The notes beneath the pieces were generated by a model that saw only the letters and a list, made by a program, of their open reading frames with translations, was not told the origin of the DNA and searched no databases. DNA of 63,338 bases from a virus. Taxonomy: Duplodnaviria; Caudoviricetes. The translations under genes were made by a program, and so were the position numbers. Below are positions 9,712-60,589 of this stretch, in pieces; the stretch's first letter is position 1, and each line of letters starts with the position of its first letter. The stretch spans positions 1 to 63,338 of IMG/VR virus record IMGVR_UViG_3300037420_001819. One strand, 5' to 3'.

Positions 9712-9875
9712 GCCTCCCCCTTCAGGACGGCCAGGTCCTGGTGTTCTGAGCAGTAGGTGTCCGTGCCGCACAGCTCGACGACCCGGTCCGGCTCGACCGC
9801 GGCGGACTCGAAGCGGCTGAGCCCGCTGACGCGGGTCGCGCGGACGCCGCTCCTGAATTTCGGCTTGTCGTTCAT
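9708..9875 (-). CDS. hypothetical protein
   Basis: MNDKPKFRSG... 55 aa, coupled to both neighbours by 4-nt overlaps, GGGGGAG RBS. Confidence 0.55.
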   Translation of the reverse strand: MNDKPKFRSGVRATRVSGLSRFESAAVEPDRVVELCGTDTYCSEHQDLAVLKGEA

Positions 9876-10555
9876 TCTCCCCCCCGGGATTGGAACATGC
9901 AGGGTTGCACCGGCGCGATCAGCGGCTCCGCCTTCGGTGGCTCCGGCGGCCGGACGAATTTCTCGACCTCGTTGCCCCATTGGTCCCAGCCCGGGACCGC
10001 CGTGCGGGCGTTCATCTCGAGGTAGGGCCCGGCGGCGTAGCGCTCGATCTCGGCGTGGAGGTCGGGCTTGCGGCTGTGCTCGCGCACCGGCGCCACGATC
10101 AGCTCGGGGATGTCGCGGGCCAGCCGCCTCGGCGAGCCGCGCCGGCCGAGCAGGCAGAATTCAGAATTTTTGCGGGTCGTGTAGCCGGTGCCGATCGGGA
10201 AATCGTCCGGGTTGGTGATGAACGCCCGGGTCGGGCTGAACCCCTCGCGCAGCTTGGCCCAGACCTTGAAGCTGCTGGAGTAGGTGAAGCCCCACGCCTT
10301 CAGGGTGGCCAAGCCGTGCTCGAGGAACGGCCAGGTGCACCACAGGATCAGGTAGCAGTCCTTCGCCGCAACCCGGCGCACCGGCAGCGCCTTGATCTCC
10401 TCCAGCGTCATGGTCGGGTAGTGGCGCTCCACGTCGCGCCGGCCCTTCGCGCCTTCCTTCGGCGGCGCGTAGGTTTTGAACTTCCACGCGGGGTCGGCGT
10501 AGATCACCCCGTAGTGCTTGCGCGGAACGTCGTCGAAATTGCTGTAGGCGGTCAT
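9872..10555 (-). CDS. MT-A70 family adenine methyltransferase
   Basis: YGVIYADPAW, HYPTMTLEEIKALPV, AWGFTY, HSRKP, YLEMNAR, GWDQWGNE. Confidence 0.9.
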   Translation of the reverse strand: MTAYSNFDDVPRKHYGVIYADPAWKFKTYAPPKEGAKGRRDVERHYPTMTLEEIKALPVRRVAAKDCYLILWCTWPFLEHGLATLKAWGFTYSSSFKVWAKLREGFSPTRAFITNPDDFPIGTGYTTRKNSEFCLLGRRGSPRRLARDIPELIVAPVREHSRKPDLHAEIERYAAGPYLEMNARTAVPGWDQWGNEVEKFVRPPEPPKAEPLIAPVQPCMFQSRGGE

Positions 10556-10788
10556 CGCCGGCGTCCCTTCCATTCGGCCGCGTGCGCCGGGCACAGGTCT
10601 TTGCCGGGCGCGGGCCTGTGGGTGCAGACGACGCAGATCGGCGCGTCGCAGGTCGGCTTCTTGCCCTGCGGCGTCTTCCAGTCGCACAGCAGGGTCGCCG
10701 GCCGGCCGGAGCCGCACCGGCAGCGCTTCGGACGCCCGGTGCAGACGATGCCGGTCACGCCGTTCGCCCTGAAGGGGACGCAGGGCAT
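10552..10788 (-). CDS. Cys-rich zinc-binding protein
   Basis: MPCVPF...CRC...LLCDW...TCDAPICVVC...DLCPAH. Confidence 0.7.
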   Translation of the reverse strand: MPCVPFRANGVTGIVCTGRPKRCRCGSGRPATLLCDWKTPQGKKPTCDAPICVVCTHRPAPGKDLCPAHAAEWKGRRR

Positions 10789-16471: not shown

Positions 16472-18625
16472 ATGGACGGTAACGCCGCCGCCACCACCCG
16501 CACCGCCGCTCCGGCCATGGAGCTCGCCGAGGACCGCGTCGACGGCCAGGACGTCGTCGTCTACGAGGGCGGCGGCCAGACCGTCGCCCAGCAGCGCAAG
16601 GCCCGCACCGGCGCCCTGATCGCCGCCTTCGACAAGCGCCGGGCCGATTACGAGACCTTCCTGAACGCCTACGGCATCAGTTTCGAGGTGTTCACCGCCG
16701 TCATCAAGCAGGCGCTGGTGAAGCAGCCGGACCTGCTCGACTGTTCGGCCGGGTCGGTCCTGCAGGCGGCGCTGATGTGCGCCAAGGACGGGCTGGTCCC
16801 CGACGGCAAACGGGCGGCGATCACCAAGTTCGGCAACGTCGCCACCTACCAGCCCATGTACGAGGGCATGCTGGAGATCGCCTACGACGTCCGGGACGCT
16901 GCGGGCAACATGGTCTACCGGGACGTCGAGGTCGACGTCGTCTACAAGGGCGAGGAGGAGCTGTTCGAGTACCGGCGCGGCGACGACGGCTACATCCGCT
17001 TCAGCCCGCCGCTCGACCGCGACATCACCGCCGAGATCGCCGGGGCCTACTGCATCATCCGCACCACCAACGGCGGCGTGTTCCGCGAGGTGATCGGCGG
17101 CAAGGAACTGAAGAAGATCCGCGCCGTCTCCAAGGCCAAGAAAGGCCCGAACGTCGACTGGCCGGCCCAGATGGCCAAGAAGGCGCCGCTGCGCCGCCTG
17201 CTGAAGATCACCCCGAAGAACGCCCGCCTGCAGCAGGCGATGACCCACGACGAGAACTCGTACCTCACCGAGGTTCCCGGGCCGGAGTCCGCGGCGCCGC
17301 AGATCGGCCACGACCAGCTGTTCGACGACAAGGCCGTGCACGTCGCCGCCGGGGGCGAGACCGTGGTCGAGGCGGAGGTCGAGCCGGTCGACGCCCTGAG
17401 CCACGCCCGCGCGCTGCTGATGGAGTGCGAGAGCGCCGAGCAGCTGGAGTCGACCATCGGCTACATCAACGCGGCGCCGGAGTTCGCCGGGCTGAGCGCC
17501 GAGGATCGCGAGAGCCTGGCCAAGAACGCGCAGGTCATGGCCCAGCGCTTCGGCGCGGCCGATATTACGGCGCCGACCGACCACGAAATCGCCGCCCCCG
17601 AGAAGCCGAGGAAGCCGCGCAAGTCGAGGGCCGAAAAGATCGCCCACCCGGACACCGAGTCCGGCGGGACCGGCGTGGCGGCCGACGCCGTGCACGAACC
17701 CGAGGCGGCGGTCGACCCGGTGACCGGCGAAGTCGTCGACGACCCTGCCGCACTCGGCGGCTCCGGCGGCTCGTATGTGCGGGCGGTCGCTCCGGTGATC
17801 GAAACCGTGGCCGACGACTTCATGGCCGGGCCGGACACGCCGCCGGTGATCACCGACGCCTCGTTCGAGGAGATCGACGAGACTCCGGCGAGGGTCGGCG
17901 GGCCGAAGGTCGAGGCCAAGGCCGAGCCCAAGGTGACCCCGGCCGAGGCCGCGGCGACGGGCGACTTCTACATGCTGTCCACCGACACGCCGAACGCCAG
18001 CAAGCAACGCCCCTACTACGACGAGAAGGGACAGATCCGCGGCTACGCGCTCGACAGCCAGGGCATCCGGGTGCTGGACGCCCACCCGAACCAGCCGCAG
18101 GCCGCGCCCGCGGCGTCGGACCGGCCCTACACCCTGTCGGGCGACCCCTGGGAGAACGGGATCAAGCCCGCCTACATCGCCGGCGTCGCTCGGGCCAAGG
18201 CCGGCAAGAACAACGCCCTGCCGGAGTTCGACAGCCACGAGGCGGCCGCCTCCCACTTCGCCCAGCCCGAGATCCGGCGGAACCCGGAGGACCGGGTCGA
18301 CCCGGCGCAGGCCGCGCCGCCGGAACAGTCGAAGGCCGAGGCGGCGGACGAGTACGGCGCCGGAGAGACCGCCGTGCTGCGCGGCAAGTTCCGGCCGAGC
18401 GACCCGGCGAAGGAGTACACCGACCCGGCGCTGTGGATGGCCGACATGCTGAACAAGCTGCAGACCGTCTCCGAGCAGGGGCGGCCCATGTGGTTCGCCG
18501 ACAACCTCCAGTTCATCCGCGAGGCCCACGCGGTCGCGCCGGAGAAGGCCATGCGCATCCTCGCCGTCGCCGCCGCCCACAAGCTGCCCGGCGCCGCCGA
18601 GGCCGTCCAGGATCTCGGCCGGTGA
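16472..18625 (+). CDS. recT: RecT-family ssDNA annealing protein with very long C-terminal extension
   Basis: LLDCSAGSVLQAALMCAKDGLVPDG, YQPMYEGM, GAYC, WPAQMAKKAPLRRLLKITP in the first ~270 aa; 717 aa total. Confidence 0.85.
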   Translation: MDGNAAATTRTAAPAMELAEDRVDGQDVVVYEGGGQTVAQQRKARTGALIAAFDKRRADYETFLNAYGISFEVFTAVIKQALVKQPDLLDCSAGSVLQAALMCAKDGLVPDGKRAAITKFGNVATYQPMYEGMLEIAYDVRDAAGNMVYRDVEVDVVYKGEEELFEYRRGDDGYIRFSPPLDRDITAEIAGAYCIIRTTNGGVFREVIGGKELKKIRAVSKAKKGPNVDWPAQMAKKAPLRRLLKITPKNARLQQAMTHDENSYLTEVPGPESAAPQIGHDQLFDDKAVHVAAGGETVVEAEVEPVDALSHARALLMECESAEQLESTIGYINAAPEFAGLSAEDRESLAKNAQVMAQRFGAADITAPTDHEIAAPEKPRKPRKSRAEKIAHPDTESGGTGVAADAVHEPEAAVDPVTGEVVDDPAALGGSGGSYVRAVAPVIETVADDFMAGPDTPPVITDASFEEIDETPARVGGPKVEAKAEPKVTPAEAAATGDFYMLSTDTPNASKQRPYYDEKGQIRGYALDSQGIRVLDAHPNQPQAAPAASDRPYTLSGDPWENGIKPAYIAGVARAKAGKNNALPEFDSHEAAASHFAQPEIRRNPEDRVDPAQAAPPEQSKAEAADEYGAGETAVLRGKFRPSDPAKEYTDPALWMADMLNKLQTVSEQGRPMWFADNLQFIREAHAVAPEKAMRILAVAAAHKLPGAAEAVQDLGR

Positions 18626-44734: not shown

Positions 44735-45166
44735 TCAGGCCGATTCGGCGCGGAAGTTGGCGAGGTCGTCGGCGAAGCGCAGCGCGGCGTCGGCGATCCA
44801 GCGCGTCTCCTTCAGGCGGGCGAAGGAGATCAGGTCGCCCTCGGCCGGGACCTGTTCGCCCGGGGCCTCGCCGGAGAAGTTCTCCACCGCCGTCACCAGC
44901 CGGGCGAACTTGCGCGCCGGCTCGGCCTTGCCCGCCTCGACGGCCAGGCTGACCGGATCGCCGCGCAACTTCTTCGCCCCCTCGCGGATCATCTCGTCCA
45001 GCAGCTGCTGGTAGGCGTCCGACTGGGTCGAGCGCACCTTCAGCCGCACCGGGCGGCCGCCGACCAGCACCGGCGCGTCGCCGCCGGGCTCCTTCAGCGT
45101 CATCCACGCGCCCTGCTCGAGCTTGTCGAGCGACAGGAGCGCGGCGACGGCGTCAAACTTCATCAT
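44735..45166 (-). CDS. second tail assembly chaperone (paralog of 45575-46048)
   Basis: Aligns end to end with the 45575-46048 product (GAWMTL, PVRLKVRS, ENFSGEA, TRWIA). Confidence 0.75.
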   Translation of the reverse strand: MMKFDAVAALLSLDKLEQGAWMTLKEPGGDAPVLVGGRPVRLKVRSTQSDAYQQLLDEMIREGAKKLRGDPVSLAVEAGKAEPARKFARLVTAVENFSGEAPGEQVPAEGDLISFARLKETRWIADAALRFADDLANFRAESA

Positions 45167-45596
45167 CTTTCGGGCCCTTCCGGGTCTGTTGCTGCGGCCG
45201 GCACCGGAGCCAGGTCCAGTCGAGCCGGATCAGCGTCTCCGCGTCGAATTCGTCGAGATCGAGCCGGTAGTTCTGGCTGAAGGCCAGGATCTCGCTGTGG
45301 GTCAGCCGGCCGTGGCCCATGCCGCCCTCCGTCGTGCCCCGGAGCTCGTCGTACCAGTCGAGCAGGTAGAGCAGGCGGTTCGTCGGCTCGGCCTTCGGTT
45401 TCGGCTTGCGGGGCCGGCGAGGTTTCCCGCCTGCGGCCTGGGCGGCCTCGGCGGCCCGCTGCGCCTTCCACTTCTCGAGGCGCTTGAGGTGATCGGAGAC
45501 GGCGGACCCGCCCAGTTCGACCCGGTCGAGGAAGCGTTCCTCGGCCAGCCTGAACAGGTCCGCCCGTTCCTCGATCAGGCCGCGGCGGGGTTTCCC
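45153..45596 (-). CDS. tail chaperone T segment, expressed by -1 frameshift (gpGT-like)
   Basis: GKPRRGLIEER...LTHSEILAFS...DAETLIRLD; frame entered at slippery GGGAAAC; no convincing start of its own. Confidence 0.75.
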   Translation of the reverse strand, partial: GKPRRGLIEERADLFRLAEERFLDRVELGGSAVSDHLKRLEKWKAQRAAEAAQAAGGKPRRPRKPKPKAEPTNRLLYLLDWYDELRGTTEGGMGHGRLTHSEILAFSQNYRLDLDEFDAETLIRLDWTWLRCRPQQQTRKGPKDDEV

Positions 45597-46048
45597 GCGG
45601 CGTCGCCGTAGTTGGCCTTGTCGGCGGCGTGCTCGGAGACCTGCTCGGCGATCCAGCGGGTGTTCGACGCGCGCGCGATCGCCTGCTTGTCGTCGTCGGA
45701 CGGGGTCTGCAGCGCCTCGCCGCCGAAGTTCTCGAAATCGACGGCCAGCACCGAAAAGCTCTGCGGGAGGTCGTCGCGGATCCGCTTCAGCGCCAGTTCG
45801 AGGCGCTGCGCCTCGGACTTGACCCGGCGGTTGTCGGCGGCGCCGCGGCGCGCCTGCTGGTCGGTCAGGTTCTGGAACGCCTCCGACAGCACCGAGCGGA
45901 CCCGGATGCGCAGCGGCTTGCTCCGGTCGGTCTTGCCGTCGACCTGCGCGAACAGCGGTTCGCCGTCGGTCGGGTCGCGAAGGTGGCACCAGGTCCCGGT
46001 CTCGATCAGATCGGGCTTCAGGATCTCGGCAACGGATCCGAGCTTCAT
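45575..46048 (-). CDS. tail assembly chaperone (gpG-like)
   Basis: Between tube and tape measure; GGGAG RBS; slippery heptamer near the 3' end. Confidence 0.8.
   Translation of the reverse strand: MKLGSVAEILKPDLIETGTWCHLRDPTDGEPLFAQVDGKTDRSKPLRIRVRSVLSEAFQNLTDQQARRGAADNRRVKSEAQRLELALKRIRDDLPQSFSVLAVDFENFGGEALQTPSDDDKQAIARASNTRWIAEQVSEHAADKANYGDAAGNPAAA
45590..45596 (-). other. programmed -1 frameshift site G GGA AAC
   Basis: X XXY YYZ heptamer in frame just before the chaperone stop; the -1 frame is open to 45153. Confidence 0.8.
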
Positions 46049-48985: not shown

Positions 48986-49401
48986 CAGAACCCCGGCGGC
49001 GGGACGTTGGAGGGGTGGGTCGGGTCGACGCGCTGCGCCAGCACCTCCGACGCGGTCGCGCCGCCGACGAAGATGCCGCAGAAGTCCGCGCCGGAGAGCG
49101 CCGGCGTCGAGGCCGCTTCCCGCTTGGCCTGCGCCTCGAGCTGCACGGCCAGTTCGGCGAAACGCCGGGACGCCTGCGAATACTGCACGCCCTGGCCGTC
49201 GACGGTGGTGTCGACCTTGCGGGCGAATTTCATGGAGAGGTCGCGCGCGAGCTGAGCGGCGGTCGCCGTCTCGCCGCGGGTGGCCAGATAGGCCGTGATC
49301 GTCTCGTCCTGGACGAGGGCGGCGGCCGGGTCCGTGTCGCCGATCAGCTGGCGGACCCGGCTGACCGGATCACTCAGGTCCGCGTTGAACGTCACCGCCA
49401 T
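48985..49401 (-). CDS. head-tail adaptor protein
   Basis: SRVRQLIGDTD...QDETITAYL...YSQ pattern. Confidence 0.75.
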   Translation of the reverse strand: MAVTFNADLSDPVSRVRQLIGDTDPAAALVQDETITAYLATRGETATAAQLARDLSMKFARKVDTTVDGQGVQYSQASRRFAELAVQLEAQAKREAASTPALSGADFCGIFVGGATASEVLAQRVDPTHPSNVPPPGF

Positions 49402-50095
49402 CTTGCCCCTCCGGCCCTTGCTCAGCCGTAGAGGCGCCCGAATCGGCGCCCGGGGTCAATTCGTCGCCGTAATCGGCGTCCGACGAAACGTCGTCGGCCG
49501 TCTCGCCTTCCGTCCCGCCTTCGCCGGACGTCTGGCCTTCCGCTACGTCCTCGCCGGCGGTCTCCTCGACCGGGGCGGGCGGCGGCGGGACCTGCTTGGC
49601 CTGTTCCACCGCCGCGGCGGTGGCGTCGAGCCCGTCGAGGAACAGGTCGACTCGCTTCAGGCCGTTGATCTGCCCGCCCGGGTTCAGCCGGCCGCCCTGC
49701 GCGTCGTAGACGTCGTAGTGGCGGAAGTTGCCCTTGCGGGTCTCGACCAGGAAGCGGCCGCGGTGCGGCGTCGCCCCGGCCGGGAGCCCGGCGGCGGGCG
49801 AAGCCGGAGCGCCTTTCGGCAGCTCCAGCCCCATCGCCTTCAGGCCGTCGACGGTGAAGCCCCTCGGAACGCGCCCCTCGGGCAGGGCACGAAGACACGC
49901 GGCCAGGTTCTCTTGGGTGAGTTCCCCGATCATGCGCGCCTCGTACATCTGCCGCGCCCTTCGCTCCCCGAGCGCGAGCTGACGCCACGGGAAGGCGTCG
50001 CCCGGTCCGAACGAGCGGCCCGAAACCGAGGCGATCGGCTTCATGGCGATCATCTGGGCGCCGGTGTTGAAGGGGAGGAGAGCGTTCCGTTTCAT
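49370..50095 (-). CDS. hypothetical post-capsid protein with acidic tail containing DYGD
   Basis: 241 aa starting 3 nt after the capsid stop; acidic low-complexity C-terminus. Confidence 0.7.
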   Translation of the reverse strand: MKRNALLPFNTGAQMIAMKPIASVSGRSFGPGDAFPWRQLALGERRARQMYEARMIGELTQENLAACLRALPEGRVPRGFTVDGLKAMGLELPKGAPASPAAGLPAGATPHRGRFLVETRKGNFRHYDVYDAQGGRLNPGGQINGLKRVDLFLDGLDATAAAVEQAKQVPPPPAPVEETAGEDVAEGQTSGEGGTEGETADDVSSDADYGDELTPGADSGASTAEQGPEGQDGGDVQRGPE

Positions 50096-50098
50096 GGC

Positions 50099-51133
50099 TT
50101 ACACCGCGTTCGTCAGCAGGATGCCCAGGTTGACCGCCGTCACCTTGGGCACGGTGTACCAGCGCGATTCGACCCATTCAGCAGCCGGACGCTGGGTGAC
50201 GTAGCGGGCGATGTAAAGGCCCTCGCTGTTCAGCTTTCCGCCGAACGGTTGCGGGGCCACGCCGCCGGAGTCCGCCGCGCCGGTCCAGCCGAAGCGGTAA
50301 CCCGCCGACGGCACCTCGATCGACGGCGCGTCCGGGGCGTACCAGAGGAAGACGTTCTTGCCCCAGATGTCCTGGACGTTGGCCGCGGCGCCCTGGGCGG
50401 CGGTGTTCTGCACGCCTTCGGGGACCAGGATCTCGGTGTCCATCTCGAACAGCGCCGAGATCGACTGCTTGTTGATCTTGGCCGGCGCGCCGTTGGAGCC
50501 GGTGAACTTCACCCGGTCGATCAGGTCCGGGTGCTCGGTCAGCGCGTTCAGCACCGCCTCGCCCATCAGCATCCGGTTCGGCTTGAACCCGGTCAGCAGA
50601 CGCATGGTCAGCTTCAGCTGCTTGATCAGCGCGATCGGGTCCGAGGCCGGGTCCGACCACTTGCGGAAGGTGGTGACGTTGTCCTCGCCGGCGGCGACGC
50701 CGTTCAGCTTCTGGCCCCAGACGGTGTTCAGGACCAGGGTGGCGATGTCGATCTCGAGCGAGAGGTGCGCCTGGAAGGTGACGAACTCGGTCTTCAGGTT
50801 GGCCAGACCGACGATGCCGCCGACCTGGGCGTTGTTCAGGTCGCGGTTGGTCCAGTTCGCCGACACGCCGTACTCGTCGACCGAGTAGGTGGCCTTCTGG
50901 AAGGCGAAGCCGCCGAGCGGGGGCGACTCGCCGTTGGCCAGCTTCTTGGCCTGCGGGCGGAGCCATTCGTCGCGCGGCAGCACGTTGTACTCGCCGAACT
51001 GCGCGCCGACGCCGATGGCGGGGAAGACCTGACGGCCGATGAACATGGTCTGCTTCGGCAGGAAGCTGATCGCCATGTTGGTGAGGCGCGGCGTGAAGTT
51101 CTGGGTCAGCGCGCGACCTTCGGGTTGAGGCAT
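50099..51133 (-). CDS. major capsid protein
   Basis: LTNMAISF...VFP...KWSDPASDPI...KPNRMLMG...LTEHPDLIDRVK...PSAGYRF, typical MCP pattern. Confidence 0.9.
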   Translation of the reverse strand: MPQPEGRALTQNFTPRLTNMAISFLPKQTMFIGRQVFPAIGVGAQFGEYNVLPRDEWLRPQAKKLANGESPPLGGFAFQKATYSVDEYGVSANWTNRDLNNAQVGGIVGLANLKTEFVTFQAHLSLEIDIATLVLNTVWGQKLNGVAAGEDNVTTFRKWSDPASDPIALIKQLKLTMRLLTGFKPNRMLMGEAVLNALTEHPDLIDRVKFTGSNGAPAKINKQSISALFEMDTEILVPEGVQNTAAQGAAANVQDIWGKNVFLWYAPDAPSIEVPSAGYRFGWTGAADSGGVAPQPFGGKLNSEGLYIARYVTQRPAAEWVESRWYTVPKVTAVNLGILLTNAV

Positions 51134-51207
51134 TGGAGCTCTCCGTGTCGGATGCCCTTGCGGGCGAAAAAAGGATCCGTGGGGTTTCGGAGGGCGCTAC
51201 GCGGGGC

Positions 51208-51576
51208 TTAGCCGGCCAGCGAGCCGGGGGCCCAGATGAATTCGGCGATGCCGCCGGCGGCGCCCGCCTTGGTCACCTGACCGAAGAAGAAGGCGCCGGC
51301 GCCGACGGCCGGGATGCCCTTGCCGTTGGCGTCGGACATCACCTTGTCGCCCAGCGCCAGCGGGGTGGCGCCGACTTCGATCTCGTTCCCGGCGTTGCCG
51401 CTCTCGATGCGGGCCAGTTCGCCCGCGGCCGGGCTGTTGTACATGACGCCGACGCCGTGGGCGCCGTTGCCGCAGAGCACGGCGTTGCCGTTGTTCTTGA
51501 CGGCGACGAAGCGGGCGACGGTGGCCGAGTAGTCGGCGTCCGCCGGCAGCGAGGTGATGCGATCCGGATTACGCAT
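51208..51576 (-). CDS. capsid decoration/cement protein (DUF2190-like)
   Basis: Small Gly/Ala-rich protein, GDKVMSDANGKG, before the MCP. Confidence 0.75.
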   Translation of the reverse strand: MRNPDRITSLPADADYSATVARFVAVKNNGNAVLCGNGAHGVGVMYNSPAAGELARIESGNAGNEIEVGATPLALGDKVMSDANGKGIPAVGAGAFFFGQVTKAGAAGGIAEFIWAPGSLAG

Positions 51577-51639
51577 GATTGGTGTTCCCGATGATGTTGA
51601 TCCGGCCCGGTCGCGGTCGCGCCGGGCCTGTGTTGACGC

Positions 51640-52476
51640 TTAGACGCCGGCGTCCGCGCGGATGTCGGCTTCCTCGGCGTCGGCCTTGGCGACCAGTTCC
51701 GCGTTCGCCGGGTCGGCGCAGACGGCGCCGAAGGCGATGGCGTAATCCTCGCCGTTCTTTTCGGCCCGCTCGCTCGCCATCTTCTCGAGGCGGGCGGTGG
51801 CCGAGCTCTCGTTCTTCAGCAGCGAGGCGTGGCCGACGGCGGCGGCGTTCATGCGGCACATCTCGGCGTGGGCCCGGAACACGGTCTCGATGGTCTCGCG
51901 CTCGTCCTGGCCGAGGCCCTGCGCCGCCTTCAGCACGGCGACGGTCTTCTCGACGCCGACGCCCAGGCCCTTGAACTCGGTCTCGGCGCGCTTCTGCAGC
52001 GACACGGTCTCGCCGGCCTTCTTCACCGCGGCGAGCTCGGCGGAGGTGTCGTCCAGCGACTTTTGCAGCGGGGCGACGGCGGCGTCGACCGCCGACTTGA
52101 CGATGGCGGCGATGTCCTCGGCCTTCATCGTCTTTTCGCCGGTCTTTTCACCCTCCTTCGCCTTGCCGAAGCCGGACTTCTCGACCCAGGCGGCGACTTC
52201 GGTCTGGCGGTCGGTCTCGGACTTCTCGAGGTGGGCGTTGAGCGCCGACTCGTCGGTCAGGGTGTCGACGTAGGCCGCGGCGGCGCCGCCGGCCAGAAGG
52301 ATGGACTTGAGCAGCTGAGCCTTCAGCATGTTCTGGTTCTCCGGTTGTTCCGACGGGGTGTCCGCGGATTTCTTGAGGAAGACTTTGGCGTGGGGATTCG
52401 AGCCGCGACGGACGAAGCTGACCTCCATCTCGCCCTTCGGATCGACGTCGAGGATGCGGCGCACGGCCTTCGGCAT
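51640..52476 (-). CDS. capsid scaffolding protein
   Basis: EVSFVRRGSNPHAKVFLKKS followed by helical segments with KS/KA repeats; AAGGAG RBS. Confidence 0.7.
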   Translation of the reverse strand: MPKAVRRILDVDPKGEMEVSFVRRGSNPHAKVFLKKSADTPSEQPENQNMLKAQLLKSILLAGGAAAAYVDTLTDESALNAHLEKSETDRQTEVAAWVEKSGFGKAKEGEKTGEKTMKAEDIAAIVKSAVDAAVAPLQKSLDDTSAELAAVKKAGETVSLQKRAETEFKGLGVGVEKTVAVLKAAQGLGQDERETIETVFRAHAEMCRMNAAAVGHASLLKNESSATARLEKMASERAEKNGEDYAIAFGAVCADPANAELVAKADAEEADIRADAGV

Positions 52477-52481
52477 GACGG

Positions 52482-53603
52482 CTACTCCTTGATGGGCTCG
52501 ACGAAGGCGTCGCAGCCGATGGACAGTTCGAAGTCGGACGCCTTGGCCACGTCCCAGACGTCGTCGTCGGCACAGTGGAAGCCGAGCAGGGCGCCCTCGA
52601 ACTCGATCTTGCGCACCACCGCGGCCTCGGCCTTGGTCAGCGCCCCGGCGGCCTCCAGCGTGTCGGCGATGCCGGCCCAGATCTCGGGGCGGAACACCAG
52701 GCCCTCGACGATCTCGGATTTCTTCGCGCCGGCGTGGTCGAACTTGCCCGCCCGGGAGCCCTTGATGATCTCGTGGGTCAGGGTCAGCAGGGCGTCGGTG
52801 GTGATCTCGTCGCGGTGGCTGTCGACGACGTTCTCGCCGTTGATCTTCGACACGCTGGCCCAGCCGTAGACCATCCGCTCCTCGTCGCCGGAGCGCAGCA
52901 CCCGCGAGATGTTCGGTTCCGGCGTCTGCGGCTGCTGGCCCCTGGTCAGGCGCTCGAGCAGGCCGTCGTGGTTGGCGAACAGCCGGTCGGCCGACTTCTG
53001 CAGCAGCGGCGCGCCCTGCCCCATCAGCAGCAGGGTCTGCCGGTCGATCGGGTCGATCCCCTTCAGCACCAGGTCCGGCTCGGCCGCGACGGCGGCGGCG
53101 GCGAGGTCGGGCCCGGCGGCGAACGCGGCGCCCTTCTCGATCACCGCCTTCGCGTCCGGCGCGAACGGGGCGAACACCTCCGGGCCGAAGATCATCGACG
53201 GCGGCATCGCCGCCAGCGCCTCGTCGGAGACCTCGAACCCCTTGGCGTCGTAGGACAGGGTGACGTGCGGCCGGTACTCCGGCCAGTCCGACACCGCGCC
53301 CTGGCCGAGGAAGAACCAGTTCCGGTCGGTCAGGCACCAGTCCCAGAACAGGAAGGTCAGCACCGACTCGTCCAGCCCGAGGAAGCCGATCCGCCCCTCG
53401 GTCGAGTAGACCTGGACGGTGTGGCTCTGCGGCTTGACCTTCACGTCGGTCCGCGAGGCGATCACCGTGACGTGCATGTCGGCGGCCGCCACCGGGTTGG
53501 GGACGCCGTACTTCTCCGCCCACTTCGCCCAGGCGTCGGCGTTGAGCACCGGCCGGCTGACGTACAGCCCCGAACGCTTGGCGATGCGGTCGAAGATCTT
53601 CAT
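52482..53603 (-). CDS. fusion: 2H phosphoesterase (Acb1/57B-like) plus XkdF-like prohead protease
   Basis: N-term LYVSRPV...MHVTVIASR...EYRPHVTLSY (two HxT motifs); C-term ERMVYGWASV...VDSHRDEI...H...ELSIG. Confidence 0.8.
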   Translation of the reverse strand: MKIFDRIAKRSGLYVSRPVLNADAWAKWAEKYGVPNPVAAADMHVTVIASRTDVKVKPQSHTVQVYSTEGRIGFLGLDESVLTFLFWDWCLTDRNWFFLGQGAVSDWPEYRPHVTLSYDAKGFEVSDEALAAMPPSMIFGPEVFAPFAPDAKAVIEKGAAFAAGPDLAAAAVAAEPDLVLKGIDPIDRQTLLLMGQGAPLLQKSADRLFANHDGLLERLTRGQQPQTPEPNISRVLRSGDEERMVYGWASVSKINGENVVDSHRDEITTDALLTLTHEIIKGSRAGKFDHAGAKKSEIVEGLVFRPEIWAGIADTLEAAGALTKAEAAVVRKIEFEGALLGFHCADDDVWDVAKASDFELSIGCDAFVEPIKE

Positions 53604-53667
53604 TTGACGCCCCCGCGGCGAATTCCGTTGATTCGGGAGTGTGCCTGAAGCGCGGCCGCTGTGAACA

Positions 53668-55113
53668 TCACTCGGAGCGGACCCGCATCGGCTTGGCGCG
53701 CGGCGGCTTCGCGGCCGGGGGCGTCCCGGGCTGCGGCTCGACCGGTTTCGGCTTCGGCTTCTGGTCGGCCACGGCGCGGCGGGCCTGGCGCAGGCCGGCC
53801 TTGTCCAGCACCGCCTCCTTCAGCGCCGGATCCTCGGCGAACAGCGGCTCGGCGTCGGCCAGGCGCTGCACCAGCAGGCCGATCTGGTCGATGGTCTCGT
53901 CGGCGATGCGGCCCATCTCCAGCCGCGGCCGGTACTTCGCCGGCGAGGCGTTCATCAGCCACAGCAGGCGCAGCGCCTTGCGATTGTACTCGTCGGCGAT
54001 CTTGCGGCCGAACCACTTCAGCGAGCGCAGCGCCAGCGTCGACTGGTCAGAGCTCAGGGCGTTGGAGCCGCCGGCGCGGTCGCCCAGGTGCAGGAACTGC
54101 ATCAGCACGGTGCGGGCGGTGGCCCGGTCGTAGTCGCGCGCGGCGGTGCGCGCGTCGATCGAACGCTGCCCCGAGCTCGAGATGATCCGGAAGTCGTACT
54201 TGCGCACGTCGGACGGCTTGCCGTCGGCGTCCTCGAACACGTCGGAGGGCAGCACCAGACCGGCGGCCTGGTTGAAGCGCATCTTCTGCGCCGCCGCCTT
54301 CGCCGCCTCGATGCGGGCGCGGGCGCGGACCGCCGCCGGCGTCGGCCGGCCGTCCGCCCCCACCTTCTCCGCCTCCAGCAGCAGCTCCTCGGGGACGTCG
54401 AACACCGGCATCCCGCACATCTCGCGGTCGATGCCGACGGCCTCGGACTCCTGGATCCGCTGCTTCAGCGTCCAGACCCGGTAGGCGTTGCGCAGCAGGC
54501 TGCGGCCCCACGGGTTGTTCAGCACCGAACTGGTCCGGTAATGCAGCAGCTTCCACACCGGGATCTCGGCGCGGCCCCGGTACAGGGTCTGCTGGACCAT
54601 GTGGGTCAGCTTGCCGTCCGGGCCGCTCATCCAGTCGGCGACGGTGTGCTGGTCGCGCAGGTACAGCCCCTCGTAGCCCCAGCGGCCGTCGGCGTACTTG
54701 CAGGTCTCGCCGTCGCGCTTGCGGAACACGATCTCGCACGGGGCGAAGCCGGCCCAGATCATGGTCAGCGCCTCCTCGACGTGCTCGCCCCAGGAGTGCT
54801 CCATGTCGTCGAGACAGGAGTCGGCGAAGTCGGCCCACTTCGTCGCCCTCTCGTAGTCCGGATGGTCCGGCCCGACCTCGCGGTCGTTGACGCAGGGAAC
54901 GTGTTTCCATTCGATCTGCGCCAGGGTCGAGACGAACACCCACAGGATGGCCCCGATCGTCTCGTCGGTCTCGGCCATGCGCTGCAGGTTGCGCAGCCCG
55001 TTCCAGCCGTCGAGGTCGGGGACGAAGTAGAAGCCGTCGCGGCCGCGGCCGTGGGCGAAGTCGACCGCCTCGCCGAGTTCCAGTTCGGCCTGCGCCGTCG
55101 ATACCTTGCTCAT
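53668..55113 (-). CDS. portal protein (DUF935-like)
   Basis: NNPWGRSLLRNAYRVW, GMPV, ARTVLMQFL; follows terL; GAGGA RBS. Confidence 0.88.
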   Translation of the reverse strand: MSKVSTAQAELELGEAVDFAHGRGRDGFYFVPDLDGWNGLRNLQRMAETDETIGAILWVFVSTLAQIEWKHVPCVNDREVGPDHPDYERATKWADFADSCLDDMEHSWGEHVEEALTMIWAGFAPCEIVFRKRDGETCKYADGRWGYEGLYLRDQHTVADWMSGPDGKLTHMVQQTLYRGRAEIPVWKLLHYRTSSVLNNPWGRSLLRNAYRVWTLKQRIQESEAVGIDREMCGMPVFDVPEELLLEAEKVGADGRPTPAAVRARARIEAAKAAAQKMRFNQAAGLVLPSDVFEDADGKPSDVRKYDFRIISSSGQRSIDARTAARDYDRATARTVLMQFLHLGDRAGGSNALSSDQSTLALRSLKWFGRKIADEYNRKALRLLWLMNASPAKYRPRLEMGRIADETIDQIGLLVQRLADAEPLFAEDPALKEAVLDKAGLRQARRAVADQKPKPKPVEPQPGTPPAAKPPRAKPMRVRSE

Positions 55114-56573
55114 TCCTCGGCCCCGAAATCGTCGAAGGTGTAGATGCCGCTCACGGCTCCGCTGGAGCCAGAGCCGCCCTTCTTGCTGAGTCGCGTCAAT
55201 CCCCAGACCGCCGCGTCGGCCCGGTCGAAGTCCTCGCCGGTCGGGTCGTAGCCGTCGTGCAGCGCGGTCATCTGGCGCTCGAGCTCGTAGAATCGGCCCG
55301 GCGCCTGGTCGTGCCCGACCTCGCCGACATGGCTGACCTTGCCCTGCTCGTAGGCGGCCGCCACCGGCTCGGCGCGGCGCTGCTTGCCGCGGGTGGCGCG
55401 CACCTTCACCACCTTCACGTCGACCCCGGCGCCGGCGCCGACCTGCTCGATCACCATGCGCACCATGTCGCCGCCCTGGTTCACCTCGGCGACGATCTCG
55501 TCGGCCTGGTAGTCGATGAAGGCCTGCACCGCGGCGCGCGCCCACTTCTCCGGGCCGCCCTTCACCGAACGGTCGGCCAGCACGAAGCGCTTTTCGCCCT
55601 TGCGGGCGCAGACCACGATCCCGGCGGCGTGCGCCGTGCCGGTGGCGGTCATGTTCGGGTCGACCCCGACCACCACCCGGTCGCAGCTGCGGGCGAAGTC
55701 GCGGGCGAACTGCTCCGGGTCGGCCCCGGCCGGGGTGCGGATGCGGTGCTTGTCCAGCGTCTCGGACAGGAACAGGGCGCCGTCCTCGTCGCCAAGCACT
55801 TCGGCGTACAGCTCCTGTTTACCGAGAGACGTTCCCTCGTAGGCGTCGCGCACCTTCTTGAGGTACTTCTTGGCCAGATTGTCAGAATTCTCGAACGTCG
55901 AGCCGCGCGTAATCATGATTCCTTCGTCTTTCTTGGCGTCTTCCAGGATCTTCTTCAGCCATCGGTGCGGCCGCGGCGTGGTGGTGTACAGCAGCTGCGG
56001 GTTGGTCCCGAGCCGCAGGCCGAACTCCATGTTGGAGATCGCCTTGGTCCGGGCCTCCGGCGGGAAGGCCATCGGCTCGTCGACCCAGGCCGCCTCGAAC
56101 TGCGGGCCGCGCAGCGCCTCCGGGTCGGCCGCCGAATAGACGAACCCGACCGCGCCGTTCGGCCATTCCAGGTGGCCGCAGCCGACCGACGGGTAGAACT
56201 TCGGCCGCATCCACGACGGGCTGCAGGCCAGGATCCCGGACTCGCCCTCGATCATCACCTCGCGCACGTCGTCCTCGCCCTGACCCAGAAGGCAGACCCG
56301 GCCGACGCCGCGGTTCTCCACCAGGTCGCGGACCCACTCCGAGCCGGTGCGGCTCTTGCCGAAGCCGCGCCCGGCCAGGATCAGCCAGGTGTGCCAGTCG
56401 CCGTCCGGCGGCAGTTGCTTGTCGCGGGCCCAGATGCGCCAGTCCTTGGCGAACTCCTCGAGCTCGCGCGCCGACAGCGCGTCGAGGAAGGCGGCGCGGT
56501 GCGCCTTGTCGAGCGTCTTCCACCACTCGGCGGTGTAGCCCGCGGCCCACCACCTCGAATCCTCTCGGCGCAT
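55110..56573 (-). CDS. terL: terminase large subunit
   Basis: Walker A LAGRGFGKS, LRGPQFEAAWVDE, YTTTP, nuclease VGVDP...DRADA. Confidence 0.95.
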   Translation of the reverse strand: MRREDSRWWAAGYTAEWWKTLDKAHRAAFLDALSARELEEFAKDWRIWARDKQLPPDGDWHTWLILAGRGFGKSRTGSEWVRDLVENRGVGRVCLLGQGEDDVREVMIEGESGILACSPSWMRPKFYPSVGCGHLEWPNGAVGFVYSAADPEALRGPQFEAAWVDEPMAFPPEARTKAISNMEFGLRLGTNPQLLYTTTPRPHRWLKKILEDAKKDEGIMITRGSTFENSDNLAKKYLKKVRDAYEGTSLGKQELYAEVLGDEDGALFLSETLDKHRIRTPAGADPEQFARDFARSCDRVVVGVDPNMTATGTAHAAGIVVCARKGEKRFVLADRSVKGGPEKWARAAVQAFIDYQADEIVAEVNQGGDMVRMVIEQVGAGAGVDVKVVKVRATRGKQRRAEPVAAAYEQGKVSHVGEVGHDQAPGRFYELERQMTALHDGYDPTGEDFDRADAAVWGLTRLSKKGGSGSSGAVSGIYTFDDFGAEE

Positions 56574-56737
56574 CAGAACTCCCGGGCGTCGCGGAACCAC
56601 GGATCGACCGCGGGTCCGGGGCGGGGCGGCCGCGCCCGGTCGACGAAGTCCGGCGTGATCTCGGCCTGGTCCGCCCGGCCGAGCCGGTAGCCCAGCAGGG
56701 CGGCGACGCCGATCAGCAGCCAGACCCAGTCGCCCAT
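56573..56737 (-). CDS. small membrane protein
   Basis: MGDWVWLLIGVAALLGYRLG; stop overlaps the terL ATG. Confidence 0.55.
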   Translation of the reverse strand: MGDWVWLLIGVAALLGYRLGRADQAEITPDFVDRARPPRPGPAVDPWFRDAREF

Positions 56738-56797
56738 GCGGCCCCCGGCCGGTTTCGGAAAACCCGCCGAAAGCTGGGCCGATTCGGCCGCGGGCAC

Positions 56798-56840
56798 GAA
56801 AAAGCCCCGCCGGACGGGGTGGGGTCCGACGGGGCTTTCC
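56798..56840 (-). terminator. intrinsic terminator upstream of the terL operon
   Basis: AAAGCCCCGTCGGAC...GTCCGGCGGGGCTTTTTC on -. Confidence 0.75.
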
Positions 56841-56859
56841 CGGTTACTCTCGCGTCCGC

Positions 56860-57204
56860 CTACGGGGACGGGGGGGTCTGGCCGCAGGCGGCGTCAGGGT
56901 CGGCGATTCCCTCGACCTGGTCGAGCGGCACGAAAACCGAGCCGCGCAGGTAGCCGCGCCAGTCGCCGCACGGGAACACCAGCGCCTCGACCAGGCCGAA
57001 GCCGGCGCGGCCGTCGGTCGGGGTCCAGGTCTGGCCCTGCGACCCGACCCGCGGCGCGATCGGGAAGCGGGCGATCTTGGCGCAGGCCGGGCAGCGGATC
57101 GACAACTGCTGGTCCGAACGGTGGCCGGTGCGCCGCGCCGCGCCCGGCGCGCCGCCGCCCTTCTTGAAGAAGCCGTCGACCAGGCGGAACTGGACGGGGT
57201 TCAT
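56860..57204 (-). CDS. hypothetical protein (DUF6527-like)
   Basis: IRCPAC...TWT...CGDWRGYLRG. Confidence 0.55.
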   Translation of the reverse strand: MNPVQFRLVDGFFKKGGGAPGAARRTGHRSDQQLSIRCPACAKIARFPIAPRVGSQGQTWTPTDGRAGFGLVEALVFPCGDWRGYLRGSVFVPLDQVEGIADPDAACGQTPPSP

Positions 57205-57428
57205 CGCGGCAGGTCCCACGCCGAGATGTCGTAGAACGGCGCGATCGCACGCTTGGCGGTGACGATGACCTCTTGGAAATCCCGGCGGTCCTGCGGCTCC
57301 GGGATCAGGCCGGGCAGGCGGCAGATCATGGTCGAGCCCAGCATGGCGGCGCGGGTCGAGGACTCCGGCGGCGACCAGGCCCGCAGCGGCTCGTACCAGG
57401 GGCCGGGGCAGCGGTGAAGTTCCGCCAT
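57201..57428 (-). CDS. hypothetical protein
   Basis: MAELHRCPGPWY..., coupled to both neighbours. Confidence 0.5.
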   Translation of the reverse strand: MAELHRCPGPWYEPLRAWSPPESSTRAAMLGSTMICRLPGLIPEPQDRRDFQEVIVTAKRAIAPFYDISAWDLPR

Positions 57429-57829
57429 CACCGCAGCACCCAAAGCAGGATCGCCGTCCACAGCGCCTTGCAGGCGAGGTGCAGGATCTGATCGCGGTTG
57501 AACGAGCCCTCGCCGACGGCGCCGAGCCGGCCGGAGCATTTCAGGTGGTCGATCGTGGCGTGGAACCCGGCCTCGGCGACACCGAAGACCAGACCGAGTC
57601 GCACGGCCGCGCGCGGATCCATACCGCCCAGGGCGAGGAAGACGGCGACCACCGCCCATGCGGCCGCGCCGTGGATCGCGGCGTGGCTGGCGAGGATGGT
57701 TCGCCACGGCACGCCCGGGATCGGGGCCGATGCGTTCTTGGCGCGGGCGAGGAAGTCTCCTTGGCCGGGGTAGTCGGCGACGAGGTGGGCCACCACGAAG
57801 GCGGCGAACAGGGGAACGGCGTCGACCAT
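57428..57829 (-). CDS. DUF3307 family membrane protein
   Basis: AHLVADYPGQ, HAAIHG, HATIDHLK, DQILHLACK. Confidence 0.85.
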   Translation of the reverse strand: MVDAVPLFAAFVVAHLVADYPGQGDFLARAKNASAPIPGVPWRTILASHAAIHGAAAWAVVAVFLALGGMDPRAAVRLGLVFGVAEAGFHATIDHLKCSGRLGAVGEGSFNRDQILHLACKALWTAILLWVLR

Positions 57830-57831
57830 GC

Positions 57832-58488
57832 TCACGCCGCCTCGGTCAGGATGCGGAGCGCGTCGCGCAGGTCGGCGTAGTGGACGCGGGCCTCGCCGCC
57901 CTTCGCCTGCTCGAGGTCGTCGCGCAGCCGGGCCAGCAGCACGGCCGACGGCCTCGGCGCCGGCTCCTTTTCGCCGCGCAGGTAGGACTCGAACCGGGCC
58001 GCCAAGCTGATCACGGCGCCGGCGTCCAATTCGGCCCCCAGCACCGCCAGCTCGAGCGCGCGGTCGCGCAGCTCGGCGTCGCGATCCTCGTCGTGAGCGC
58101 CGGTCTCCTCCTCGAGGACCTGGTGGGCCTCGGCGATGTCGGCGCAGGGCAGGACGAAGGCCGGGTCGAGCCGGGCGCGGTACGCCGCCGGCAGGTTTTC
58201 GTTCAGGCCCATCGGCACGCCTTCGACCTCTGGGAACTCGGCCTGCGGCTGGTGGTGCGCCTCGAACCACGCCGGGCCGACGAAGCGGATCCGGTCGCCG
58301 TCCAGCAGCAGGTAGTCGCCGGACTGCGGAACGATCTCGGTCAGCATGTCGGCTGTCACCGGCACGCGGACGCCGCCGTCCAGCACCACGGCGAACAGCG
58401 CCGGGCCGTCGTACTCGAGGCGGGTGACGCGGGCGGCGCGCACCGGGATGACCCGGTCGTAGAGCGGAAGGGTGTCGAGTTCGGCCAT
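57832..58488 (-). CDS. hypothetical protein
   Basis: 218 aa, ACAGGAGG RBS; PQSGDYLL...WFE. Confidence 0.75.
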   Translation of the reverse strand: MAELDTLPLYDRVIPVRAARVTRLEYDGPALFAVVLDGGVRVPVTADMLTEIVPQSGDYLLLDGDRIRFVGPAWFEAHHQPQAEFPEVEGVPMGLNENLPAAYRARLDPAFVLPCADIAEAHQVLEEETGAHDEDRDAELRDRALELAVLGAELDAGAVISLAARFESYLRGEKEPAPRPSAVLLARLRDDLEQAKGGEARVHYADLRDALRILTEAA

Positions 58489-60019: not shown

Positions 60020-60400
60020 CTACGCCGCCGCGGCGCGGCCCGCGTCATTCATCCGCAGGACGGGCTCTATCACCGGCACGCCCGCGGCGCGGGCCTTGGC
60101 CAGCATGTCGGCGGTGCCGCGGCCGCCGGGGAAGCCGACCACCAGGTCCGGCGCGCCCTCGCGCAGCATCTTCGTGTTGCGGATCGGCCCGGCCGCGGGT
60201 CCGGCGCTCCAGTCGGCGCGGAACTCGCGCTCCGGCACGCCGCGCCACTCCGCCCACTTCTTCGCCATCCAGTCGGCCCCGGTCCCGCCGCCCTGCACCA
60301 CCAGCGAAAAGCCGTACAGCCGGTGCAGCAGATCGAGGCTGCGCACCAGGAACACCTTGTCGGCGAAGTCGCGGCCGCCGCAGACGAGGACGCGGGTCAC
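60020..60400 (-). CDS. DUF2493 / YspA SLOG-family protein
   Basis: RVLVCGGRDF, VVQGGGTGADWMAKKWA, ADW...AAGPIRNTKML, FPGGRGTADM. Confidence 0.88.
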   Translation of the reverse strand: MTRVLVCGGRDFADKVFLVRSLDLLHRLYGFSLVVQGGGTGADWMAKKWAEWRGVPEREFRADWSAGPAAGPIRNTKMLREGAPDLVVGFPGGRGTADMLAKARAAGVPVIEPVLRMNDAGRAAAA

Positions 60401-60552
60401 CGCGGAAAGCGGACCGGGGTCGATAACTCGCCGAACATGGCCTTCAGGCGTTCGGTGCGGTCGCGCTCGCACGTCCGGCACTCCGGGATCGTCTTTCCAC
60501 GGCCCAGGTCGCGCATCTGAAGGGTTTCGCCGTGCGTTTCGCACTTTTTCAT
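60397..60552 (-). CDS. small zinc-binding protein (not in the ORF track)
   Basis: MKKCETHG...PECRTCERDR...FPR*, 51 aa, GGGAG RBS, GTGA overlap with DUF2493. Confidence 0.6.
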   Translation of the reverse strand: MKKCETHGETLQMRDLGRGKTIPECRTCERDRTERLKAMFGELSTPVRFPR

Positions 60553-60589
60553 CGAGGGGTCTCCCGTGCGGCACAGGCGTAGCAGACAT

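Follow-up and report, generated by a model that had tools for sequence, protein, structure and literature searches.

Acb1 is the best-understood of the phage enzymes directed against the cyclic oligonucleotide-based antiphage signaling system (CBASS). The subject of this report is a gene of an uncultured tailed phage (positions 52482..53603, minus strand, of the 63,338-base viral record IMGVR_UViG_3300037420_001819, the whole of which is referred to below as the window) whose product joins an Acb1-type domain to a prohead protease, the kind of enzyme by which CBASS is triggered. Both halves of that statement have precedents, which the initial annotation of this DNA had stated correctly. Gene 57B of T4 encodes Acb1 (stated in PMC13728456 and PMC9117128), with activity from about 15 min into infection, alongside the late onset of CBASS (PMC9117128). 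The triggering of CBASS by a prohead protease is likewise reported (10.1101/2023.05.21.541620, 10.64898/2026.03.04.709575): Richmond-Buccola et al. located CBASS escape mutations in prohead protease genes (10.1101/2023.05.21.541620), and according to Hobbs and Kranzusch (2026; 10.64898/2026.03.04.709575) T4 gp21 suffices for CBASS activation and cuts the activation loop of the CD-NTase (cGAS/DncV-like nucleotidyltransferase).

Attachment of 2H phosphoesterase domains to head proteins has its own short history. Fusions of 2H domains to MuF or portal proteins were described by Iyer et al. (2017; PMC5512222), who proposed that the domains degrade the nucleotides by which certain defence systems are activated. 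The initial annotation's reference to 2H domains on head-morphogenesis proteins agrees with that work, and finds further backing in the portal protein gp3 of cyanophage Pam3 (8HDS; an Acb1-type domain at residues 471-608 of 8hds_A, E 6.8e-06, phmmer against the PDB) and in two portal-Acb1 genes found here. (A term search of the main text of the Pam3 paper finds neither "phosphoesterase" nor "RNA ligase".) In the portal and MuF fusions the 2H domain is C-terminal, whereas in the protein considered here it is N-terminal and its partner is a maturation protease. In Iyer et al. (2017) the word "prohead" is confined to the title of a reference. The survey of Doherty, Nomburg et al. (2025; 10.1101/2025.08.21.671373) counts additional domains in 13 of 75 viral 2H phosphodiesterases, "proteases" included, in a passage that holds no detail on the protease partner and no link to CBASS triggering; "fused" and "fusion" are absent from the text of Hobbs and Kranzusch. 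A literature search returned no paper containing both "Acb1" and "XkdF", none of the papers listed as naming both "Acb1" and "prohead protease" mentions the fusion, and no paper was found that links this fusion to the 2026 finding that the protease activates CBASS. The protein adds a further member to the Acb1-head protein fusions, a large family whose existence had been predicted and whose description is poor.

What can be said of it is of graded strength: 1) By computation, its first 150 residues form an intact 2H phosphodiesterase of the Acb1 family, with a full HxT/HxT catalytic tetrad. 2) Likewise by computation, its last 140 residues form a capsid-maturation serine protease of the XkdF type, with the fold of T4 gp21 and herpesvirus assemblin. 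3) The combination is real and common in phage metagenomes. 4) That the whole is a bifunctional late protein of a tailed phage, nuclease and maturation protease in one, acting against CBASS in the manner proposed below, seems to us probable, with considerable room for doubt. The gene and its parts are:

52482..53603, minus strand: the whole fusion gene (open reading frame list, sequence, G+C fraction at third codon positions (GC3) of 0.99, near-identical protein P0001)
53154..53570, minus strand: Acb1-type 2H phosphodiesterase domain, residues 12-150 (PF23474, phmmer, model, Foldseek)
53466..53474, minus strand: first HxT motif, His44-Val45-Thr46 (codons CAC GTC ACG)
53259..53267, minus strand: second HxT motif, His113-Val114-Thr115 (codons CAC GTC ACC)
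52911..53153, minus strand: linker, residues 151-231, Ala-rich, partly helical and of low confidence (predicted local distance difference test score (pLDDT) 39-78 in the full-length model)
52485..52910, minus strand: XkdF-type prohead serine protease domain, residues 232-373 (PF14550 matches of relatives, fold searches)
52821..52823, minus strand: Asp261, candidate third catalytic residue (conservation)
52734..52736, minus strand: His290, candidate catalytic histidine (conservation)
52521..52523, minus strand: Ser361, candidate catalytic serine in a conserved xSIG motif (conservation)

The open reading frame (ORF) runs from an ATG through 373 codons to a TAG stop. Its coding bias is strong, as judged from a GC3 of 0.99 and a second-position value (GC2) of 0.44, the window as a whole having 70.6% G+C. 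The protein collection holds a 99%-identical sequence (P0001), and the possibility that the fusion is an artefact of assembly or a frameshift is rejected by the existence of at least 147 two-domain relatives.

The initial annotation had read two HxT motifs at 53466-53474 and 53259-53267 and had assigned a 2H domain to the first ~150 residues; the codons lie exactly there, and the motifs do not arise by chance, because residues 12-150 match the Acb1 profile PF23474 far above its cut-off of 27 bits (E 7.9e-24, 84.5 bits, spanning positions 2-140 of the 144 in the profile; 87.2 bits in a six-frame search). Against the PDB, phmmer retrieves chain 7t26_A of the Acb1 crystal structure (E 1.1e-08), in an alignment that pairs the LH.T and YRPH.TLSY blocks. 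In an AlphaFold model built from 18 sequences the pLDDT is about 85-98 over the Acb1 domain and above 85 at residues 10-140. The annotation had also proposed comparing residues 1-150 with Acb1 by HHpred or Foldseek: Foldseek, applied to the model, finds a compact 2H fold and places the Acb1 structures first (7t26, E 6.2e-09, TM-score 0.78 on the target; 7t27, E 7.3e-09, TM-score 0.71), followed by a Burkholderia phage phosphodiesterase (9q2y) and then by E. coli LigT (E 8e-05 and weaker). With the Acb1 proteins of T4 (57B) and Erwinia phage FBB1 (7T26/7T27) the fusion accordingly shares the Pfam family, the compact 2H fold and the positions of the tetrad, and it differs from them in architecture: those are stand-alone proteins of about 150 residues, while here the domain is the N-terminus of a 373-residue protein that runs on into a protease. 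Identity to FBB1 Acb1 is about 22-24%, and the likeness is one of sequence and model.

The active site bears closer inspection. The catalytic tetrad of Acb1 is H44, T46, H113 and T115, supplemented by base-stacking aromatic residues (PMC9117128), and the tetrad of the fusion, at 44/46/113/115, reproduces the numbering and spacing given for Acb1 in that paper. Conservation was followed in an alignment of the fusion with 17 relatives (A1; the 99%-identical P0001 was left out, as were P0014, P0015 and P0017, which covered 37-40%): three of the four positions (H44, T46 and H113) do not vary, and the fourth, 115, holds T, S or, in one sequence, C. Among 147 two-domain relatives, H44 is kept in 139, T46 in 141, H113 in 139 and T or S at 115 in 138, the tetrad as a whole (T or S allowed) being intact in 138. 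The ligand contacts described for Acb1 include Y12, W74, F107, W147, an adenine-contacting glutamate (E141) and a C-terminal lid (PMC9117128). Tyr14 of the fusion aligns with the GLYV tyrosine of the crystal protein in a pairwise alignment that ends at residue 126; the columns of W107, G140 and E142 vary little or not at all in A1, and the fusion may have equivalents of the lid and the glutamate.

A 2H domain need not act on cyclic oligonucleotides. It could be an enzyme of the LigT/Usb1 type, either a 2',3'-cyclic phosphodiesterase or an RNase, that serves to repair RNA or to attack that of the host, an RNase role being one of the two options offered by Iyer et al. (2017; PMC5512222). The PHROG that matches residues 13-142 (phrog_755, E 4.1e-15) is indeed labelled "RNA ligase", as are many stand-alone homologues in T4-like phages, and LigT structures are the next-best fold matches. 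We nonetheless think an RNA substrate improbable: the Acb1 profile scores far better than those of the LigT type and matches 18 of the 18 aligned family members, while the LigT-type profiles PF02834 and PF13563 are each matched by one of the 18 (E 0.0076 and 0.0097); the T4-like proteins labelled "RNA ligase" include the family that has been experimentally shown to be Acb1 (PMC9117128); a search of 63 other ORFs of the window gave no match to RNA ligase or polynucleotide kinase families; and Iyer et al. never saw these versions of the 2H domain beside RNA ligases (PMC5512222).

The C-terminal half is less readily recognized from its own sequence. PF14550 (Peptidase_S78_2, XkdF) covers residues 232-358 (about 52530-52910) at 19.5 bits and E 0.001, the cut-off being 24. 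The XkdF-like part that the initial annotation had placed at about 52482-52890 is in this sense borne out indirectly, since PF14550 is matched at E <= 0.01 by 12 of the 18 sequences of A1 (best 1.1e-13) and the fold searches point the same way; two-domain relatives at a greater distance give scores of 31-75 bits. (The same part also matches phrog_1530, labelled "DNA methyltransferase", at E 1.2e-22.) In the full-length AlphaFold model, with its 18-row alignment, the C-terminal domain is of low confidence (pLDDT 34-88). It was refolded alone with a 130-row alignment (A2: fusion residues 226-373 together with 129 sequences, drawn from the 152 proteins in which the protease part is present), and the refolded domain attains a pLDDT of 90 and a predicted template modelling score (pTM) of 0.82. 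Searched with VIA-align against 48,161 PDB representative chains, it finds T4 gp21 first (5jbl_A, root-mean-square deviation 2.5 A over 107 aligned residues) at Z 8.0, about the typical best score of that program for models without a clear match; the protease of varicella-zoster virus is second (1vzv_A, Z 5.7), and the next match scores 4.3. In BFVD there are 19 matches at E <= 0.001, the best unnamed (E 3.0e-11), and seven carry the name "PBSX protein XkdF" (best named E 6.1e-11). XkdF-family peptidases are treated as head-processing enzymes by Iyer et al. (2021; PMC7824862). The window protein shares with them (PF14550), and with T4 gp21 (5JBL), its position in the head module, its fold and a conserved His/Ser pair; unlike them, it carries an enzyme on its N-terminus.

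Is it an active protease? One can imagine instead a degenerate protease fold retained only for binding scaffold or targeting the capsid, with the real protease, if there is one, encoded in the unsequenced part of the genome. The sub-threshold Pfam score would fit, as would a contig (classed linear) that is estimated to be 79% complete, and an ORF that ends some 12 residues past the serine, with the HK97-type end-strand motif lying in the next gene. The conservation makes a dead fold hard to accept: His290 and Ser361 are the sole invariant columns of the protease domain in the 130 sequences of A2, and Asp261 and Arg284 are nearly invariant; in relatives placed by hmmalign, position 290 is H in 132 of 132, position 361 is S in 129 of 129 and position 261 is D in 131 of 132, and relatives not placed at a column have a gap there. 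Asp261, His290 and Ser361 are, on this conservation, the likely catalytic residues. Ending just beyond the xSIG motif is moreover the rule of the family: the fusion ORF stops 12 residues past Ser361, nearly all relatives do the same, and the PF14550 profile itself stops there, the C-termini of relatives reaching positions 121-125 of its 126. The head module is contiguous and offers no other candidate, and searches for other protease families found none in 63 further ORFs of the window (Pfam) or in 26 ORFs (PHROGs), which leaves the fusion as the only protease detectable in the contig, in the canonical place between portal and scaffold. A dead protease thus strikes us as very unlikely.

How widespread is the arrangement? 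The initial annotation had implied that it is a rarity, which it is not. A word-indexed search gave 21 relatives of the fusion, all with PF23474 on record, and the profile made from A1, run against 1.84 billion representatives, retrieved 5707 proteins at E <= 0.001, 2836 at E <= 1e-10 and 196 at E <= 1e-30. Among the 166 relatives examined, which include the best 150 of the 5707 profile matches, coverage criteria assign both domains to 147, the Acb1 part only to 13, the protease part only to five, and neither to one. The figure of 147 is a lower bound, because seven of the supposedly "Acb1-only" proteins do match PF14550 (12 of the 13 were scanned with Pfam); at least 147 of 166 thus have the two domains together. 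The linker between them differs in length from one relative to the next (A1). Larger versions also occur, in the orders ChaB-Acb1-XkdF, Acb1-ADP-ribosyltransferase-XkdF and ART-PolyVal-Acb1-XkdF, and there are forms with DUF5824. Three metagenomic proteins (P0090, P0116 and P0128) have Acb1-XkdF and ADP-ribosyltransferase domains (ADPrib_exo_Tox, ART-PolyVal, ART) on one chain; many other Acb1-XkdF proteins start with a ChaB domain or contain DUF5824.

A tblastn search of 50,697 GenBank phage records matched 568, nearly all through the stand-alone Acb1 genes of T4-like phages, and only Caulobacter phage Sansa (two records, one genome) was matched over both domains. Sansa gp024 (YP_009785412.1, "hypothetical protein") has the same two-domain architecture at about 33% identity to the fusion, and its surroundings resemble those in the window: terminase, portal, fusion, a scaffold-like gene, a small gene (125 aa) and the major head protein. 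In Sansa, unlike in the window, a further gene for head morphogenesis (MuF-like) stands between portal and fusion. A scan of one genome per prokaryote species, made with a narrow pattern and for that reason no census, gave two loci, both of them portal-Acb1 fusions (PF06381 with PF23474). These portals (L015:1477-3459 and L016:1579-3459; 660 and 626 aa, with a C-terminal Acb1 domain at E 1.9e-44 and 9.6e-43) lie in the genome records of Stakelama pacifica and Pelagerythrobacter aerophilus and presumably belong to prophages. A word-based search for longer proteins with an Acb1 domain gave 18: 16 of the present family, one portal fusion and one 1534-aa NUDIX protein; it reaches close relatives only and yields no ratio of protease to portal partners.

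The fusion stands in a block of head genes, in the order terminase, portal, fusion, scaffold, small head protein, capsid:

55110..56600, minus strand: terminase large subunit (PF03237, E 1.3e-22; PF17289, E 8.8e-15)
53668..55113, minus strand: portal protein, 481 aa, its ATG overlapping the terminase stop (PF06074, E 2.3e-21; phrog_113, E 1.9e-52)
51640..52476, minus strand: putative scaffold, 278 aa, rich in Ala, Glu and Lys (phrog_24785, of unknown function, E 2.4e-14)
52381..52431, minus strand: conserved N-terminal strand motif of the scaffold, residues 16-32 (recurrence downstream of the protease, complex prediction)
51208..51576, minus strand: small head protein of 122 aa, its gene lying between those of the scaffold and the major capsid protein (phrog_673, "head scaffolding protein", E 8e-12)
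50099..51133, minus strand: major capsid protein (phrog_1005, E 6.8e-66; PF03864, E 1.2e-05)

The placement of the gene between portal and scaffold, as first annotated, holds: profiles identify the portal upstream, and the 278-aa protein downstream is taken for the scaffold from its position and composition. The putative scaffold gene starts 5 nt past the fusion stop, with AAGGAG 8 nt before its ATG. NCBIfam has no family for the fusion or the scaffold, and a search for promoters and terminators in 49000-58000 gave nothing above the shuffled expectation.

The scaffold draws attention for another reason. In 12 of 12 related viral loci (L002-L013) the gene after the protease opens with a motif of the type E-[LI]-S-L-V-D-x-P-A-N-P-x-A, and starts between -8 and +3 nt from the protease stop. 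About eight of these loci are independent, since L005 and L006 are identical and L008-L010 nearly so. L004, with the match coordinates of the Sansa record, is not counted as independent of that record; the motif is degenerate in L003, and the tblastn match to the Acb1 part is confined to L002-L004. Three of eight motif-bearing proteins weakly match positions 129-157 of the 165 of PF04586, the HK97-type protease, at a sub-threshold E of 0.013-0.099: compared with HK97-type S78 proteases (PF04586), the protease of the window appears to have its last strand motif supplied by the next gene. A programmed frameshift or read-through joining protease to scaffold was considered as well and is unlikely: the gaps run from -8 to +5 nt among the loci, and it is rejected because the relative frame of the two genes varies between them (0, 1 or 2). 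The scaffold of the window, compared by phmmer with the 166 related proteins, gives no match even at E <= 10, from which it follows that the longer relatives have no detectable copy of it.

Complex prediction points to a possible physical association. For the protease domain with the first 60 residues of the scaffold, the interaction prediction score from aligned errors (ipSAE) is 0.82 (median of three runs), against 0.00 for the best control; the mark applied to this score is reached by 116 of 157 solved complexes and by two of 215 mismatched pairs, a calibration that is only rough here, where the prediction used custom alignments. The runs share at least 70% of their contacts, the pLDDT of the partner is at least 52, and the contacts of lowest error join residues 133-138 of the protease domain (around Ser361) to scaffold residues 18-22. 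In other words, the scaffold is predicted to dock with its N-terminal strand beside the catalytic serine of the protease, and the XkdF-type protease may be completed by its scaffold. If the docking is real, the first strand of the scaffold completes or clamps the protease, and the Acb1 cargo is tethered to the scaffold.

The mechanism that we propose combines these elements. CBASS would be switched on when the prohead protease cuts the activation loop of the CD-NTase, and the antidote would be produced along with the trigger: translation as one chain should make the Acb1 domain coincide with the protease in both timing and amount. That domain would hydrolyse the adenosine-containing cyclic di- and trinucleotides made by CBASS CD-NTases (3'3'-cGAMP and cA3, for example), and the CBASS effector would therefore not be switched on. 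The notion of an enzyme made when and where CBASS is activated fits the place of the gene in the head-gene block. The protease domain, for its part, would be held on the scaffold by pairing of the scaffold's N-terminal strand with the strand that bears Ser361; copies that enter the procapsid would, being so held, carry Acb1 inside, where the domain may be cut off, retained in the virion, or ejected into the next cell.

This last step shades into a different account, in which delivery is the selected benefit, the protease is above all a handle for capsid targeting and Acb1 is cargo, cut off in the procapsid, retained there in the manner of a T4 internal protein and ejected with the DNA, so that the next cell would contain the enzyme from the outset. 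Its attractions are several. The same Acb1 domain sits on portals (8hds_A 471-608, and the PF06381-PF23474 genes of the two bacterial genomes), and relatives of the fusion carry ChaB, ART-PolyVal and ADP-ribosyltransferase domains on the same chain, an effector-like architecture of the kind for which packaging and injection were predicted by Iyer et al. (2017; PMC5512222); the fusion shares with those virion-associated effector fusions a counter-defence domain on the chain of a head-interior protein, in a phage of the portal-terminase type. A folded domain attached to the protease would have to enter the procapsid if the protease acts there, and an ejectosome protein that inhibits CBASS is the subject of a 2025 preprint (10.1101/2025.07.23.666291). 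The timing speaks for the other side: CBASS is reported to fire late, on protease activity, and a few dozen injected molecules would add little to what the late operon synthesizes. No virion proteomics was found for any member of the family, and the sequence does not allow a cleavage site to be named between the two domains. Packaged cargo as the main purpose is possible, then, while on the unlikely side.

More speculative, and in our estimate rather doubtful, is a combined scheme in which the fusion is at once a self-neutralising trigger and half of a two-gene protease, active only when bound to scaffold and carrying Acb1 into the capsid for the next infection. Its first part would have the signal-destroying enzyme welded to the protease because CBASS senses prohead-protease activity. 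Its second would have protease activity, and with it exposure to CBASS, confined to scaffold-bound molecules, because only the N-terminal strand of the scaffold completes the fold and the active-site strand.

Several points weigh against the reading of the protein as an anti-CBASS nuclease joined to a working, scaffold-docked protease, the unexceptional VIA-align score among them. The protease domain of the fusion scores under the Pfam cut-off (19.5 against 24 bits), and Foldseek finds nothing for it in the PDB at E <= 0.001; the catalytic roles come from conservation, not from a residue-level overlay on gp21. A second protease could sit in the part of the genome missing from the incomplete contig. 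The scaffold of the window does not itself match PF04586, and the docking score may reflect the prediction model's memory of intact protease folds, not binding. In the Acb1 domain, the lid and the adenine-contacting glutamate are unaligned, because residue 126 is the last that could be aligned with the crystal protein. That the phage meets CBASS is an assumption: no CD-NTase (PF18144) was found in the contig, which says nothing about the host. The function of the fusion and of its relatives, finally, is a predicted one.

Elsewhere in the window are a number of genes of independent interest. A homologue of the DNA polymerase III beta clamp is encoded at 635-1948 (+; PF02767, PF02768). A C-5 cytosine methylase (8515-9771, minus strand; PF00145, E 6.5e-42) adjoins an MT-A70 protein (9872-10717, minus strand; PF05063, E 9.3e-22), and these two adjacent DNA methyltransferases likely protect against restriction. 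The 717-aa protein of 16472-18625 (+) has a RecT domain at residues 80-262 and a long unassigned remainder. Upstream of the tape-measure gene, two ORFs (44735-45166 and 45575-46048, both on the minus strand) match the first half of the 311 positions of phrog_4966; together they may represent a tail assembly chaperone that is duplicated or linked by a frameshift. A 189-aa protein at 60020-60589 (minus strand) has a SLOG domain related to YAcAr and YspA (PF10686, E 3.7e-17; phrog_289).

The interest of the fusion lies mainly in the proposed logic of trigger and antidote and in the cultured relative in a model host. A natural protein that combines the two offers a direct test of whether phages couple them, and the existence of Caulobacter phage Sansa gp024 puts that test within the reach of ordinary phage genetics. 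There is a consequence for annotation too: gp024 is filed as a "hypothetical protein" and the PHROG labels are misleading, and the family could be named the Acb1-prohead protease fusions.

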